NCBI GenBank assembly: GCA_028718785.1
Contig: JAQULB010000001.1
Location: 104,214 to 168,213, forward strand
Direction: 5' to 3'
Length of the DNA stretch: 64,000 bases
Source of the DNA: Minisyncoccota bacterium
GTDB taxonomy: Bacteria > Patescibacteriota > Minisyncoccia > Minisyncoccales > CG1-02-41-26
This document shows, piece by piece, positions 59,767-64,000 of this stretch. The first letter of the stretch is position 1. Each line of letters begins with the position of its first letter. The notes beneath the pieces are model-generated. The model was not told the DNA's origin. It was given only the letters and a program-made list of their open reading frames with translations, and searched no databases. Made by a program: the position numbers and the translations under genes.

Positions 59767-60426
59767 TTAAGACAAAGATGCTTTTGCTTTGTCTACAAGC
59801 TCGTCGATTTTTCGGTATCGAGCCACCGGAGCGTCAATACTCATAGAAAATTTCCTTACTGCTTGAGGAAATAGTTCTATAATATACCCTAGATCCTCTA
59901 TCCCCAGTTCATCTATTTTGCAGATGGACTGGAAACGATAAATCTGATCGCTCCCCGGCTTCAGAGTAAACTTAGACCCTAAGCCCTTGAAAGAGCTCTT
60001 GCCACTAATCTCTGCATCCTCCAAGTGTCTAAAGGATGTAGTTAGTTGGCTCCATTCCTGCAAGAGGATACTAAGCCCTTCTTTAGCGGCTTTTTTGGCT
60101 TCTTCTGTCAGTAGAGCTGCTTGGGTGATTTTTGCTTTCAATCCAAAGCCAATTCTACCTTTTTTGCCGAGAGCCTTCAGTATCTTGATCACCAATTGTG
60201 GAGTGATTTCTCCATCCTCATTAATAATTTTCCTGAAGCTATTCTCGGCCTCGGTTAAAGCCGTAGCGCCATAGGCCTTTGTTGACCAATGTATCACAGC
60301 CCGAAGGTTGCCTTTTTCATCCACTAGCTCCGTAGAATAGGGACCAGCAACATCATCGGTTTCGCGATAATTAACCATCAATAACCCTGCCCATCTCGCC
60401 CCGATACCAACCTTTACTCTTTCCAT
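59767..60426 (-). CDS. Hypothetical protein (219 aa)
   Basis: SD AAGGGGAGAAAAA-ATG. Higher GC than the genome background. No motif recognised. Confidence 0.5.
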   Translation of the reverse strand: MERVKVGIGARWAGLLMVNYRETDDVAGPYSTELVDEKGNLRAVIHWSTKAYGATALTEAENSFRKIINEDGEITPQLVIKILKALGKKGRIGFGLKAKITQAALLTEEAKKAAKEGLSILLQEWSQLTTSFRHLEDAEISGKSSFKGLGSKFTLKPGSDQIYRFQSICKIDELGIEDLGYIIELFPQAVRKFSMSIDAPVARYRKIDELVDKAKASLS

Positions 60427-60683
60427 TTTTTCTCCCCTTGAACACATATGCGCTCAAATAAAGTTCAAGATTGGTAACCAATCTTGGTTGTCGATCAGGA
60501 CAACCCCTCTCTAGGGATTAAAATTAACATGGACTTCTCTATCTTACTCAAACGAATCGAAAACCCCTCTATAAGGATTAATTAAATGAAGTCCATAACT
60601 TTTTTGGAGAAAAAAATCATTCAAAGAACAATGGCAATATAATAACACTATTATTACGATATGTCAATATATTTTGCCCCAAA

Positions 60684-60752
60684 AACCAAAAAGCCGTGGG
60701 GTTTTAGCGCCACGGCTTAAAATTCGTCAATTGATTCTTTGCTTAACGCCAT
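60684..60752 (-). pseudogene. Remnant of the terminator + 45-aa gene module
   Basis: 60684-60718 matches 56964-56999. The remnant ORF MALSKESIDEF-stop matches the start of the 57161 gene. Confidence 0.6.
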
Positions 60753-60864
60753 TATTATATTCTACCCCATTTCTTTCCCCTTTCCCAACCCTAGGCCTAC
60801 CCTTAGTGCTTCGACTTTGCTCAGCATAAACTCCTCGAAGGGTTCGAACATTGTCCAGATCTTT

Positions 60865-61644
60865 TTATGGTTTCATCTTTAATTCTATCTTGAGTAGTTT
60901 TTCGATCATATTTTCTATTTCCTCAATTTCTTGGTTATACTTTTTTTCTGCATTAAAAAACTTTAAGTATTCTTCAATATTAATTTTTCTAAATTTATAT
61001 AGTTTAATCCAAGAATTTTTTCCACGACCAAGAAGCAATTTCTTTAACTCAAACAAAGAACTTCTAAGCATAGTGCCTGCCAAACGATAATTTTTTAAAT
61101 TTTCATAGTTATAGGCAGCTGTTAAAAACCAATAAAAACTTACATCTGGAAAATTTGCTTGCCTACAGATAATTGCTAGAGATCTTGCTGTCTCTGATCT
61201 TAATTCAAACTCAAGACTCTTAAATTTTTTATCTATTTCTCTAATTCTTTCTTCTTGTTGCTCCAAGAACCACCTCCCCAAGTCGTCAGTTTTCTCATCT
61301 ATCTTATTTTGAAAATCGGTGGTTAGCTCTTGCCTCAAAAATTCTATTTTATTACTTTGGTTCTTTAATATCTCCTCTTGTTTACTAATTTTTTTAAGAT
61401 AGGGACCTAAATTAAACACATAAAAAAGACCACCAGTTGCAAGAATGATTGTGACCGCTAAACCTAAATAAATCGCCTGAGTATTAATTAAATTTTGTTG
61501 TATCTCTAAAATATCTTTTCTTTCTATAAAATCTCCTGTGCTCGTTGAGGCACTAACAAACAAAAAACTGCCAATCCAAAAAAATAACACTGCAGTCTCA
61601 AGTGCTAAAAGTTGAACAGTCTTGCGTTTAATCCCATCTTTCAT
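60865..61644 (-). CDS. Two-TM membrane protein with cytoplasmic coiled-coil/helical domain (259 aa)
   Basis: TM helices near residues 15-35 and 60-80, then heptad-rich sequence. Downstream of the large ATPase. Confidence 0.5.
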   Translation of the reverse strand: MKDGIKRKTVQLLALETAVLFFWIGSFLFVSASTSTGDFIERKDILEIQQNLINTQAIYLGLAVTIILATGGLFYVFNLGPYLKKISKQEEILKNQSNKIEFLRQELTTDFQNKIDEKTDDLGRWFLEQQEERIREIDKKFKSLEFELRSETARSLAIICRQANFPDVSFYWFLTAAYNYENLKNYRLAGTMLRSSLFELKKLLLGRGKNSWIKLYKFRKINIEEYLKFFNAEKKYNQEIEEIENMIEKLLKIELKMKP

Positions 61645-61665
61645 AAAATAATTTTTGTTGATTTT

Positions 61666-61703
61666 TCAAGGCGTGGAAAATTGCTTAAACAAGCAATTTT
61701 CCA
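61666..61703. other. Perfect 17-bp hairpin between the ATPase and the membrane-protein gene
   Basis: GGCGTGGAAAATTGCTT-AAAC-AAGCAATTTTCCACGCC. Confidence 0.7.
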
Positions 61704-61824
61704 CGCCAAAAAAAGGTTGGCTCCGAGCTGTGAGAGAACTTAGAACTATTATTTTAAGCGGTTGGAAGTCCTACGAACTGGACGCAGCCGTAGATATGCT
61801 GGAAGGAAAATTCCCAGTAAATAT

Positions 61825-64000
61825 TTAAATCTGACTTCTTGTCGATATTTGATACTTTTTCTTTCTCCTATCAAAAGCCCTTTCTCCACCTTCCAGGATA
61901 TCGCATACCTGCTCAATAATTCCATTCTCAAACTGGTCAACGGGCATATTTGGTAATTGTCTTGCCTGATCCTCGAGTGAACCACAATCATACTCAAGAC
62001 GAGGTGTGCGCTTGCCATTATAGTTTGAAACAATGATTTGCTCGGCGTCTGTATTGACGACAAGATTAGGATTGTGAGTCACTATTATAATTTGTCGGTA
62101 TTGTTTCCTTGATCGGAAATAATCGATTAAATCTTTATAAACCGACAGATTATCCAGATTTTCTTCTGGTTGGTCTATAATAAGCGGCCTATAATCTCCT
62201 TTATCTATCTCCAAATAAAGCATTAAAAGAATAATACCTTTTTGACCAGGAGATAAGAGGTATAAATCTGTGTCATCGAATTTTAGAGACGAAATAATCT
62301 TAAAATTCGTTGGATCGAAAAGCCAATTAAAGAAATCGTCGATACTATAATTTTCCCGCAGCTGTTCTTCAATAGAAATAATACCACCCTCAAAAGCGGT
62401 AAAACTCTCTAAAATTTTATTAATCTGTGCTTCTAACATTGCATCAGCAAAATCACCTCTCATACATTCATCCCAGAAATAATTTAGTATTGTTTTTAGC
62501 GTGTTGATTTCTCTAAAATTTCCACGTCGCGTTCTGTCAATAATATCTAAACCACTTCGATAATGAGAATCGAGCTGGTAATTGATCTGTGCTTCAAATA
62601 CAAGCTTTTTATCTGTGTCAGTTCCAGCAGAAAGTATGTCTTGTAATGGTTTGTACAACTGCTCAATCTGCGTTTTTTCCTCTTTTAATAATTTAAAATA
62701 AGAACAGTAAGTAGTCATTCTATCTTTCTCTAAGCGTTCTTTCTCTGGAGTAGATTCTGTTTTTATTTTAGTTATTTCATTCTCTAAGGCTTTAATTGAT
62801 GCCTCGACAGATAGGGCCGTTTTCTTTTGTTGTTGATACTTAAGTTTGGTTGTCTCAAAGGCTCTCGTTTGTTTTTGTTTTTCATCAATCCCGTTATTTA
62901 AAGACTGCAGATTATCAAAGGGTAAGTCGATGGCTTGGATTGCAAGCAATTGAGCCACATCTTTCTTGGCGCCTTCTTTTAGGGTTTTTAGTTTTCCGCT
63001 GATTTCATTTTTCTTTTGATCAAGCAAAGTTTTAATACCAGACTCATCGATATCAACTTTAAAGACCGAGGAATTAGTAATGCCTACATCTTGTAAAAGA
63101 GTTCCTGTTTCCTCTCGAAATTCTTCAATATGAGTTTTAAAAACTTTTACTTTTGTTTCAATTTCAATAATTTTACTGATTTGTGCCTGTAGTTCAATTA
63201 TTTTGTTTTCAAATTTCTTTTTTATTTCAGATAAAGCCGCGAGTTCTTCTTGACCCTTCTTATCTTCTGCTGGGAGTTCGGGCAAGCTTTTATTAAGTCT
63301 TTCTAATTCTTTTTTCTTTTCATCAAAGGTTTTTTCTTTGTCGGGCAGTGTTTTAAGGATCGTGGACAAAGAGCCTATTTTTTTGTTTATGCCATTGATC
63401 TTCTTTAATACTTGGTCTTTTTCATATTGAAAAGAACTTAATATTCGAGATTTTAGTTCATCAAAATCGGAAGCTCCAATTCGTTCTGTTTCATCAAGTG
63501 CCTGAAAAATAACATTTTCTATTTGTCTTTGTAGCTTCTCGCTATTCTTGTGTGAGCATAAGTCTTCCACTGCACCCTGCGGCAAATACTGAACCAATTC
63601 TTGATCCTTAGTAAGGTTACCGACTTCAAATTCAGTCTTCGAATCGTCGGCCCAATCGATTGTTATCTTAGTATTAGAAATACTACTTTTATGCTTGGCT
63701 GCTTTTTTCAAAAAAGCATCTTCGTTATCGTCTTTACTGCCAGCACCATAAGCAATTGCTTCGACTAAGGCCGACTTTCCAGAACCCCTACCACCAATAA
63801 CCGCAATCAAATCTCGGTTCAATTCTAATTTAAAGTTATCAGGAAACCATCCGTTAGATGAAGGTATTGATATCTGTTTAATCACTTTATGGTCTGGCTT
63901 GAAATTGGGGGGCGTGACCCCGATAAAGACGCGCGCATCTGGTTCATTCAGTACTTGCTTCAAGCCAGCAAATGTCGGATCGGCTTTTATCCAAAGTAAA
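61825..64000 (-). CDS. SMC/Rad50-like ABC-type ATPase with long coiled-coil insert; N-terminus runs off the window
   Basis: Walker A GGRGSGKSAL, about 400 aa coiled coil, signature LSPGQKG, Walker B LIIDQPEENLD, IIVTHNP. The frame stays open upstream of the annotated TTG at 63963 up to position 64000. Confidence 0.75.
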   Translation of the reverse strand, partial: LLWIKADPTFAGLKQVLNEPDARVFIGVTPPNFKPDHKVIKQISIPSSNGWFPDNFKLELNRDLIAVIGGRGSGKSALVEAIAYGAGSKDDNEDAFLKKAAKHKSSISNTKITIDWADDSKTEFEVGNLTKDQELVQYLPQGAVEDLCSHKNSEKLQRQIENVIFQALDETERIGASDFDELKSRILSSFQYEKDQVLKKINGINKKIGSLSTILKTLPDKEKTFDEKKKELERLNKSLPELPAEDKKGQEELAALSEIKKKFENKIIELQAQISKIIEIETKVKVFKTHIEEFREETGTLLQDVGITNSSVFKVDIDESGIKTLLDQKKNEISGKLKTLKEGAKKDVAQLLAIQAIDLPFDNLQSLNNGIDEKQKQTRAFETTKLKYQQQKKTALSVEASIKALENEITKIKTESTPEKERLEKDRMTTYCSYFKLLKEEKTQIEQLYKPLQDILSAGTDTDKKLVFEAQINYQLDSHYRSGLDIIDRTRRGNFREINTLKTILNYFWDECMRGDFADAMLEAQINKILESFTAFEGGIISIEEQLRENYSIDDFFNWLFDPTNFKIISSLKFDDTDLYLLSPGQKGIILLMLYLEIDKGDYRPLIIDQPEENLDNLSVYKDLIDYFRSRKQYRQIIIVTHNPNLVVNTDAEQIIVSNYNGKRTPRLEYDCGSLEDQARQLPNMPVDQFENGIIEQVCDILEGGERAFDRRKKKYQISTRSQI

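Follow-up and report, generated by a model that had tools for sequence, protein, structure and literature searches.

Ppl was reportedly first described by Millman et al. in 2022. The protein of Escherichia coli is encoded by a single gene, joins a PHP domain to an ATPase domain, impairs T7 and is countered by Bas63 gp130 (PMC11482910). It has been described as a single-stranded DNA 3'-5' exonuclease that nucleoside triphosphates inhibit by binding to both domains and that becomes active when nucleotides are depleted and free 3'-OH ends are present (PMC12904381, a review). The TrlF family takes its name from the temperature restriction locus trlR-trlF-trlG of Photorhabdus laumondii, where trlG proved to be the gene behind the phenotype and trlF was given no demonstrated role (bioRxiv 10.1101/2020.06.02.129163). 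Here, we analysed a stretch of 64,000 nucleotides (nt) from a Minisyncoccota bacterium (GenBank assembly GCA_028718785.1, contig JAQULB010000001.1, positions 104,214 to 168,213 of the forward strand), hereafter called the window, and found at its far end a minus-strand gene that is quite probably a stand-alone, horizontally mobile TrlF-family gene for a PHP nuclease-ATPase, a Ppl-like single-gene defence of which the window holds the C-terminal three quarters.

Like other members of the TrlF family, the protein has about 990 amino acids (aa), joins a PHP-like domain to an SMC-like ATPase with coiled coil and comes from a single gene of the kind found in plasmids and islands; its own clade, however, is tightly conserved (45-83% identity) and shares only 24-33% identity with members from proteobacteria, Bacteroidota and plasmids. 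With Ppl it shares the fusion of a PHP phosphoesterase to an ABC/SMC-type ATPase and the single-gene organization, and Ppl is its top match in PADLOC, but the similarity lies mainly in the C-terminal half and the score against the Ppl model is far under the cutoff. The window ATPase therefore belongs to a sister family rather than to Ppl itself, and the Ppl mechanism would apply to it by analogy. Mre11-Rad50/SbcCD likewise pairs a nuclease with a Rad50-type ABC head and an antiparallel coiled coil, but there the nuclease is a separate calcineurin-like Mre11/SbcD protein, whereas here a PHP domain is fused in cis, the zinc hook is absent, the coiled coil is much shorter and there is no conserved repair operon. 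Lamassu LmuB, Wadjet JetC and PARIS AriA also resemble the protein in their ABC/SMC-type heads, as seen in matches to hidden Markov models (HMMs; LmuB and AriA) and in structural matches (JetC and LmuB). Those systems work with separate LmuA/LmuC, JetA/B/D and AriB proteins, whereas the effector domain is fused here; none of these partners was found beside the ATPase, whose window neighbours gave no PADLOC match.

Family assignment and architecture of the ATPase

The minus-strand frame that ends with a stop codon at 61825-61827 is open to base 63999/64000 at the window edge and spans 724 codons, or 712 aa when counted from an internal TTG, as in the list of open reading frames (ORFs). The C-terminal 724 residues of MDD5738501.1 (P0123), a 991-aa protein from a Candidatus Pacebacteria metagenome-assembled genome (MAG) that was found in the 90%-identity cluster of the best protein-search match, are identical to the window translation. 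This protein is the window gene's own product, with 267 residues encoded past the window edge. The features of the gene are listed below, with conservation given for 109 homologues.

61825..64000, minus strand: TrlF-family PHP/SMC-like ATPase gene, 3' 2.2 kb, with the codons for residues 268-991 of MDD5738501.1 (991 aa) and the stop codon
63772..63795, minus strand: Walker A motif (P-loop) GGRGSGKS; G336, R338, G339, G341, K342 and S343 invariant
63568..63588, minus strand: Q-loop YLPQGAV; Q408 invariant
62608..63552, minus strand: helical insertion (coiled coil) that parts the two lobes of the ATPase in the AlphaFold2 model, about 315 aa long (residues 417-731)
62236..62256, minus strand: ABC signature LSPGQKG; S850, G852, K854 and G855 invariant
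62152..62184, minus strand: Walker B motif and D-loop LIIDQPEENLD; D876, Q877, P878, E879, N881, L882 and D883 invariant
62068..62082, minus strand: H-loop VTHNP; H909 and N910 invariant

All the listed ATPase motifs are invariant or nearly so across these homologues, and a reading of the whole 991-aa sequence, coiled coil included, found no CxxC zinc hook. An earlier reading of the letters, made without database searches (the sequence-only reading), had described an ORF of at least 712 aa running open to the edge, with a Walker A motif, an ABC signature, a Walker B motif with D-loop and a THNP H-loop. The open frame holds, and all of these motifs lie where that reading placed them, together with a Q-loop. 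The coiled coil that it reported is also present, but its length of about 400 aa is not, since the insertion in the model is about 315 aa long.

The NCBIfam model NF045780 (TrlF_fam_ATP), which has a curated cutoff of 350 bits, matched the window fragment with 439 bits over profile positions 249-944 of 944 and full-length MDD5738501.1 with 578 bits over positions 2-944. Since the fragment aligns from profile position 249, about 250 N-terminal residues are missing from the window. With both scores above the curated cutoff and the profile covered end to end, the ATPase is clearly assigned to the TrlF family of AAA-like ATPases, an identity that the sequence-only reading had suggested and that profile matching now bears out. 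In Pfam, the fragment matched SMC_N, AAA_21 and AAA_23.

The same reading had also likened the protein to Ppl, and this part stands only in a looser sense. Ppl is the top PADLOC match (HMM PDLC02208, 93 bits, residues 523-979), but the NCBIfam Ppl model NF042955, which has a cutoff of 1000 bits, gave MDD5738501.1 only 115 bits (E = 2e-33; best stretch, residues 840-980). Because the equivalog cutoff is not reached, the likeness to Ppl is one of analogy, not membership. The LmuB and AriA HMMs matched the ATPase weakly, at 25-35 bits.

To place the part encoded past the edge, we used an AlphaFold2 model built with a 109-sequence alignment from P0001, which differs from MDD5738501.1 at 4 of 991 residues; its mean predicted local distance difference test score (pLDDT) is 85.6. 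Foldseek searches of the PDB matched the ATPase part of this model to Rad50 (7zr1 on top), SMC heads, JetC of Wadjet, MukB, LmuB of Lamassu and RecN, with E values to 1e-9, and the N-terminal domain to the PHP phosphoesterase 3e0f and the PHP exoribonuclease RNase AM 9etk, with probability 1.0. The PHP-type metal ligands, namely HxH (H17 and H19), D57, E85, H104 and DxH (D257 and H259), are invariant or at least 90% conserved. On this evidence, the 267 residues past the edge make up a phosphoesterase domain of the PHP-like kind, joined to a head of the Rad50/SMC type; such an additional N-terminal domain had been guessed from the window fragment. The protein has the TrlF-type architecture of a PHP-like N terminus, here known from MDD5738501.1, followed by a C-terminal SMC/ABC ATPase split by a coiled coil. 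A PDB sequence search with the protein and a 24-sequence profile gave only weak AriA, Rad50 and SMC matches and no solved TrlF or Ppl relative.

The protein search recovered at least 223 homologues, mostly of about 990 aa and with 45-83% identity. Their hosts include Paceibacterota, Nomurabacteria, Woesebacteria, Saccharibacteria, Omnitrophota, WOR-3, Zixibacteria and Ignavibacteria, as well as one Rhizobiales MAG and one Hodarchaeales (Asgard) archaeon. The close subclade comprises at least 120 protein clusters, again with 45-83% identity, from Patescibacteria, Omnitrophota, WOR-3, Zixibacteria and the Asgard archaeon. A metagenome scan with P0001 as query returned a single locus, L084.

Horizontal transfer and gene neighbourhood

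The window and locus L003, from another Paceibacterota MAG, are 97.5% identical at the nucleotide level over 2279 bp (window 61722-64000, L003 10801-13079). This homology stops at 61722, 103 nt past the ATPase stop codon, and downstream of its ATPase L003 has a different terminator, followed by MgsA, SET, MazG, CYTH, HD and NUDIX genes. The two ATPase proteins differ at 4 of 991 residues (99.6% identity), whereas ZIP-family transporters of the same two genomes are 47% identical (window 18958-19785, L003 21274-22014). Assuming that the ZIP proteins are orthologous, near-identical ATPases in genomes with such divergent transporters point to recent exchange between distantly related Paceibacterota, and these sequence comparisons are best read as a very recent horizontal transfer of a single-gene cassette. 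The L084 copy has 85-86% nucleotide identity over the ORF only, in a segment that begins 8 nt ahead of the ATG and ends 5 nt past the stop codon. Since L084 and L003 have only the ATPase ORF in common, the gene moves on its own.

No family of neighbours is conserved with the ATPase. When ORFs were called and clustered in 81 loci, no neighbour family occurred in more than 17 of them, and the largest clusters, judged by eye, were tyrosine integrase (at the top), HsdS, HsdM, Type III Mod, HsdR, Fic, relaxase and SNF2. Of 80 genes that lie next to the ATPase in the same orientation and within 300 nt, 8 carry ResIII, the most frequent Pfam domain, which is followed by DEAD, N6_Mtase, SWI2_SNF2, UvrD, AbiEii, Mrr_cat and others; on a given side, such a neighbour is lacking in about 40-50% of the loci. 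More than 1000 plasmid records carry the family, annotated as "TrlF family AAA-like ATPase"; these copies are single genes that adjoin Gabija-like ATPase/UvrD pairs, Abi, CcdAB, Type I restriction-modification genes, NACHT, recombinases or integrases, and insertion sequence elements. Variable neighbours and single-gene plasmid copies are typical of a stand-alone gene in defence and mobile islands. Like Ppl, it has no obligatory partner in these data: there is no conserved neighbour in the 81 loci, and the ORF alone is common to L084, L003 and the window.

In the close clade, one kind of neighbour recurs. In 7 of 10 informative loci, L084 included in the count, a restriction-modification operon lies co-oriented and immediately 5' of the ATPase:

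L003 (6037-12976): Type III-like Mod and Res, 4-nt gap to the ATPase
L028 (361-7536): Type III-like Mod and Res, overlapping the ATPase
L004 (4896-12973): Type III-like Mod and Res, 166-nt gap to the ATPase
L006 (5339-10896): Type II methyltransferase and BsuBI/PstI endonuclease
L007 (7403-12976): Dcm, R.HinP1I and Hypoth_Ymh
L085 (1-8979): Type I HsdMSR and HARE-HTH
L084 (7202-18934): Hypoth_Ymh directly upstream, and Mod and Res 4 kb downstream

In L086 and L087, restriction-modification genes are absent nearby, and in L088 there is only a gene resembling a methyltransferase, on the downstream side. No protein of the window's contig falls into the 90%-identity clusters of the upstream proteins from L003 (Mod and Res among them), L084, L007, L004, L006 and L085. 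In L007 and L084, the gene 4-8 nt upstream of the ATPase encodes a 263/264-aa Hypoth_Ymh protein (PF09509).

Downstream genes, intergenic hairpin and repeats

Past the ATPase gene, the window holds the following features:

61722..61824, minus strand: 3' flank of 103 nt within the segment common with L003 (97.5% nucleotide identity); BLASTN homology ends at 61722
61670-61686/61691-61707, no strand assigned: perfect 17-bp hairpin with the 4-nt loop GTTT and an extension of A/T pairs to 61663..61714; unique in the window
60865..61644, minus strand: 259-aa protein (MDD5738500.1) with two transmembrane (TM) segments, hydrophobic at about residues 10-33 and 52-80
60682..60719, minus strand: terminator-like hairpin (AAGCCGTGG...CCACGGCTT then TTTGGTTTTT) with U-tract, 3' of the 259-aa gene; a repeat of 56962-56999
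60639..60667, minus strand: sigma-70-like promoter match TTGACA-17-TATTAT with upstream TG (11 of 12 positions) that precedes the 226-aa gene
59767..60447, minus strand: 226-aa protein from the first ATG (219 aa in NCBI, PHY72_01025), no family match

The 17-bp hairpin lies 117 nt past the ATPase stop codon and 22 nt upstream of the start codon of the 259-aa gene, just outside the segment shared with L003. Folding of the 191-nt intergenic region compared with shuffled sequences gave z = -6.4. When the hairpin is read on the minus strand, a T-run precedes the stem and an A-rich stretch follows it. We considered and rejected an intrinsic terminator here: because a T-run past the stem is lacking on both strands, the hairpin is not a canonical one, and the terminator scan omits it. 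Across the whole window, Rfam gave nothing at the gathering threshold, with chance-level matches only at E <= 1 around the hairpin and the repeats, and no tRNAs were found.

Neither small protein matched anything in Pfam, NCBIfam, PADLOC or PHROG, and in a word-based search of 5.8 billion protein clusters each matched only itself. A full HMMER scan of 1.84 billion representatives found 38 weak relatives of the 259-aa protein (E = 4e-12 to 7e-4), which are 86-285 aa long and mostly 200-285. The contexts of three of the 38 were read (P0124-P0126), and none lies near a TrlF-like ATPase; the neighbours are a large AAA_11/12 helicase, FtsX/cupin/AdoMet decarboxylase genes, and ribosomal protein S15/NYN genes. 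A tblastn search of 83 ATPase-relative loci with both small proteins found only L001 and L002, two short contigs with 100% identity to the window. In L001, from a second sample, the genes for the 259-aa and 226-aa proteins adjoin too, and that contig is probably from the same organism. A look-up of the 259-aa protein returned only Logan contigs of 1-2.4 kb, exact look-ups of the 219-aa protein (P0122) and of MDD5738501.1 returned no contig, and a single-sequence AlphaFold model of the 226-aa protein was unusable (pLDDT 39.5).

The terminator-like hairpin and the promoter-like site, both consensus matches, together suggest that the 226-aa gene is transcribed on its own. In its leader, between the promoter-like site and the ORF, two 23-nt direct repeats (60499-60521 and 60559-60581) lie 60 nt apart and are 87% identical; each holds a short CCCT...AGGG palindrome, and they may be operator or RNA elements. 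The 226-aa gene is richer in G+C (0.44, window 60000-60499) than its surroundings (0.31-0.38), which is compatible with a foreign origin.

The sequence-only reading had described this region correctly in most respects: the perfect 17-bp hairpin about 120 nt past the stop codon is real, if shifted by 4 nt, the 259-aa protein does have two TM segments, the protein that it gave as 219 aa has no recognisable motif, and repeat debris does lie between the genes. Its larger proposal, an undescribed arrangement of the ATPase with a membrane effector, fails. The two small genes lie outside the DNA shared with L003 and do not co-occur with the ATPase among the 83 loci, and conservation of this neighbourhood was the check on which that reading had itself said its proposal would stand or fall. 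The hairpin and the 259-aa and 226-aa proteins are local, lineage-specific neighbours with no demonstrable link to the ATPase.

A modular element of about 190 nt occurs, whole or in halves, at window 55588-55781, 58291-58384, 59493-59598 and 60795-60835, 3' of successive small minus-strand genes that encode proteins of 196, 157, 226 and 259 aa. The palindrome TTCGACTGAGCTCAGCCGAA forms the centre of a long, imperfect hairpin, after which comes an intrinsic terminator; the element has no Rfam family match. There are two full copies only, and the halves have a 6-nt junction, TGCTCC, in common. Between two halves lies the 157-aa ORF (58729-59202, minus strand), without a match in Pfam, NCBIfam, PADLOC or PHROG. 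An insertion of 1.1 kb with a 6-bp target duplication (TGCTCC) and carrying the 157-aa gene was considered and downgraded; since alignment showed that the "right half" copy has a hairpin module of its own, "mosaic 3' modules" is the better description of the repeats.

A second repeat pair, 86-92% identical, links 56962-56999 and 57136-57185 with 60682-60718 and 60727-60776. Each copy joins a terminator hairpin to the beginning of a small frame (MALSKE...). One lies after the Fic gene; in the other, after the 259-aa gene, this frame is cut to 11 codons (MALSKESIDEF*). The pair suggests recombination between cassette ends. The Fic-domain protein itself is encoded at 57176-58234 (minus strand; best PADLOC match SoFic, 70 bits), and an AbiEii nucleotidyltransferase toxin at 49673-50335 (minus strand). 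Fic and AbiEii genes are also found close to the ATPase of L003, but a tblastn comparison of the window and L003 Fic proteins found no detectable similarity. Two further minus-strand genes encode a 196-aa protein with a hydrophobic N terminus and possible signal peptide (55889-56479; phrog_24725, E = 3e-34) and a 137-aa single-TM protein (56508-56921; phrog_26268, E = 7e-12). Both PHROG families are of unknown function, and the matches hint at a phage or mobile-element origin of that part of the region.

Probable function and alternatives

For a stand-alone, mobile TrlF-family nuclease-ATPase, a mechanism can be outlined from its relatives. The protein would dimerize as Rad50 and SMC proteins do, with ATP enclosed by the Walker A motif of one head and the signature motif of its partner. 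The ATPase would engage DNA, probably at free ends, and the PHP domain would degrade the invading DNA, giving a single-gene action against phages or mobile elements like that of E. coli Ppl. Because Ppl has been described as an end-triggered exonuclease, degradation of invading DNA from free ends would, by analogy, be the most likely role here.

Several points weigh against this interpretation. For TrlF-family proteins from this clade, phage defence is a predicted role, and Photorhabdus TrlF is known only from a temperature-restriction operon in which no trlF mutations were recovered (bioRxiv 10.1101/2020.06.02.129163). The likeness to Ppl proper is partial, at 115 bits against a cutoff of 1000 and mainly in the C-terminal half. 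Pfam finds no PHP match for the N-terminal 294 aa, even at E = 10, so the PHP assignment rests on the fold match and the conserved residues. The PHP domain and the upstream side of the gene lie beyond the window edge, which leaves room for an upstream partner. On the other side, no canonical terminator or promoter separates the ATPase from the 259-aa gene, and transcription may read through from one into the other.

The placement behind restriction-modification operons could mean that the ATPase is an accessory of such a system encoded just upstream, past the window edge, with its PHP/SMC-like exonuclease degrading the ends made by restriction. Adjacency in 7 of the 10 informative close-clade loci, with some gaps of 4 nt or less, favours such a role, as does the reported requirement of Ppl for free 3'-OH ends (PMC12904381). 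We nevertheless consider it unlikely. The type of restriction-modification system differs among loci (I, II and III), which is expected if they simply cluster in defence islands; no such genes lie nearby in L086 and L087; and in the wider family restriction domains occur in only about 10% of immediate neighbours. Moreover, the ATPase ORF is all that L084 and L003 share, so the gene travels by itself, and the clusters of the L003 Mod and Res proteins lack a member from the window's contig. It is doubtful in the same degree that this subclade supplies a portable exonuclease that senses ends and is coupled to any restriction-modification operon downstream of which it happens to insert, completing the destruction of restricted DNA, and the adjacency may be ordinary defence-island clustering. 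Such a function would make sense in host lineages that lack RecBCD-type degradation. The idea that the ATPase and the 259-aa two-TM and 226-aa proteins form one defence module, with the ATPase as sensor and a membrane effector, draws on three consecutive, co-oriented minus-strand genes, on the interval without canonical terminator or promoter between the first two and on the adjacency of the two small genes in L001, which is 100% identical and probably from the same organism. It is very improbable, given that neither small protein has a homologue near any of more than 80 TrlF-like ATPase loci, that both match only themselves in the word-based search, and that no TrlF-like ATPase accompanies the three relatives of the 259-aa protein with known contexts, where genes for FtsX, cupin, ribosomal protein S15 and NYN lie instead. 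The near-identical L003 copy, where homology ends 103 nt past the stop codon, is followed by MgsA, SET, MazG and CYTH instead, and within the supposed module a terminator-like hairpin and an 11/12 promoter-like site part the 259-aa and 226-aa genes.

A housekeeping ATPase for repair or chromosome maintenance, of the Rad50/SbcC/RecN/SMC kind, has smaller chances again. The top structural matches are indeed Rad50, SMC and RecN heads, and sequence matches to Rad50 and SMC models exist, but MDD5738501.1 scored 29 bits against the Rad50 model NF003034 (cutoff 700) and 26 bits against the SMC model TIGR02168 (cutoff 567), both far under the equivalog level. The coiled coil has no CxxC zinc hook, neither the window nor L003 has a gene for an Mre11/SbcD partner, and a PHP domain is fused instead. 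The distribution is also patchy: a near-identical gene occurs in genomes whose ZIP proteins are 47% identical, and members sit among integrases, restriction-modification genes and plasmids. The canonical RecN/SbcC repair protein that the sequence-only reading had named as its own refutation was thus not found. Least credible of all is a growth-control operon of the trlR-trlF-trlG type, in which a small HTH regulator (trlR) and a trlG-like gene with AlbA_2 and HATPase_c_4 domains would adjoin the ATPase gene. The protein does satisfy the NCBIfam model named for TrlF, and Photorhabdus TrlF is a large protein, annotated as "histidinol phosphatase", from a three-gene operon (bioRxiv 10.1101/2020.06.02.129163). 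A trlG-like gene is absent downstream of the ATPase, however, on the side that can be read in the window, where Pfam finds no AlbA_2 or HATPase_c_4 domain; these two domains are not among the 25 commonest families of the 80 immediate neighbours of family members, and the Photorhabdus phenotype mapped to trlG, not trlF (bioRxiv 10.1101/2020.06.02.129163).

Taken by itself, the finding at this locus matters little: the family model is already curated at NCBI, the protein is deposited as MDD5738501.1, and the three-gene arrangement is confined to one genome. Its remaining value is modest. The repeated placement just after restriction-modification operons hints at cooperation between restriction and an end-dependent exonuclease, and if the accessory role were true, these proteins would be a new kind of restriction-modification accessory and not an independent system. 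In Patescibacteria (the candidate phyla radiation) and in other uncultured phyla, nuclease-ATPases of this Ppl-like PHP/SMC kind are common and have moved recently, and this clade of the TrlF family offers reasonable candidates for phage defence.

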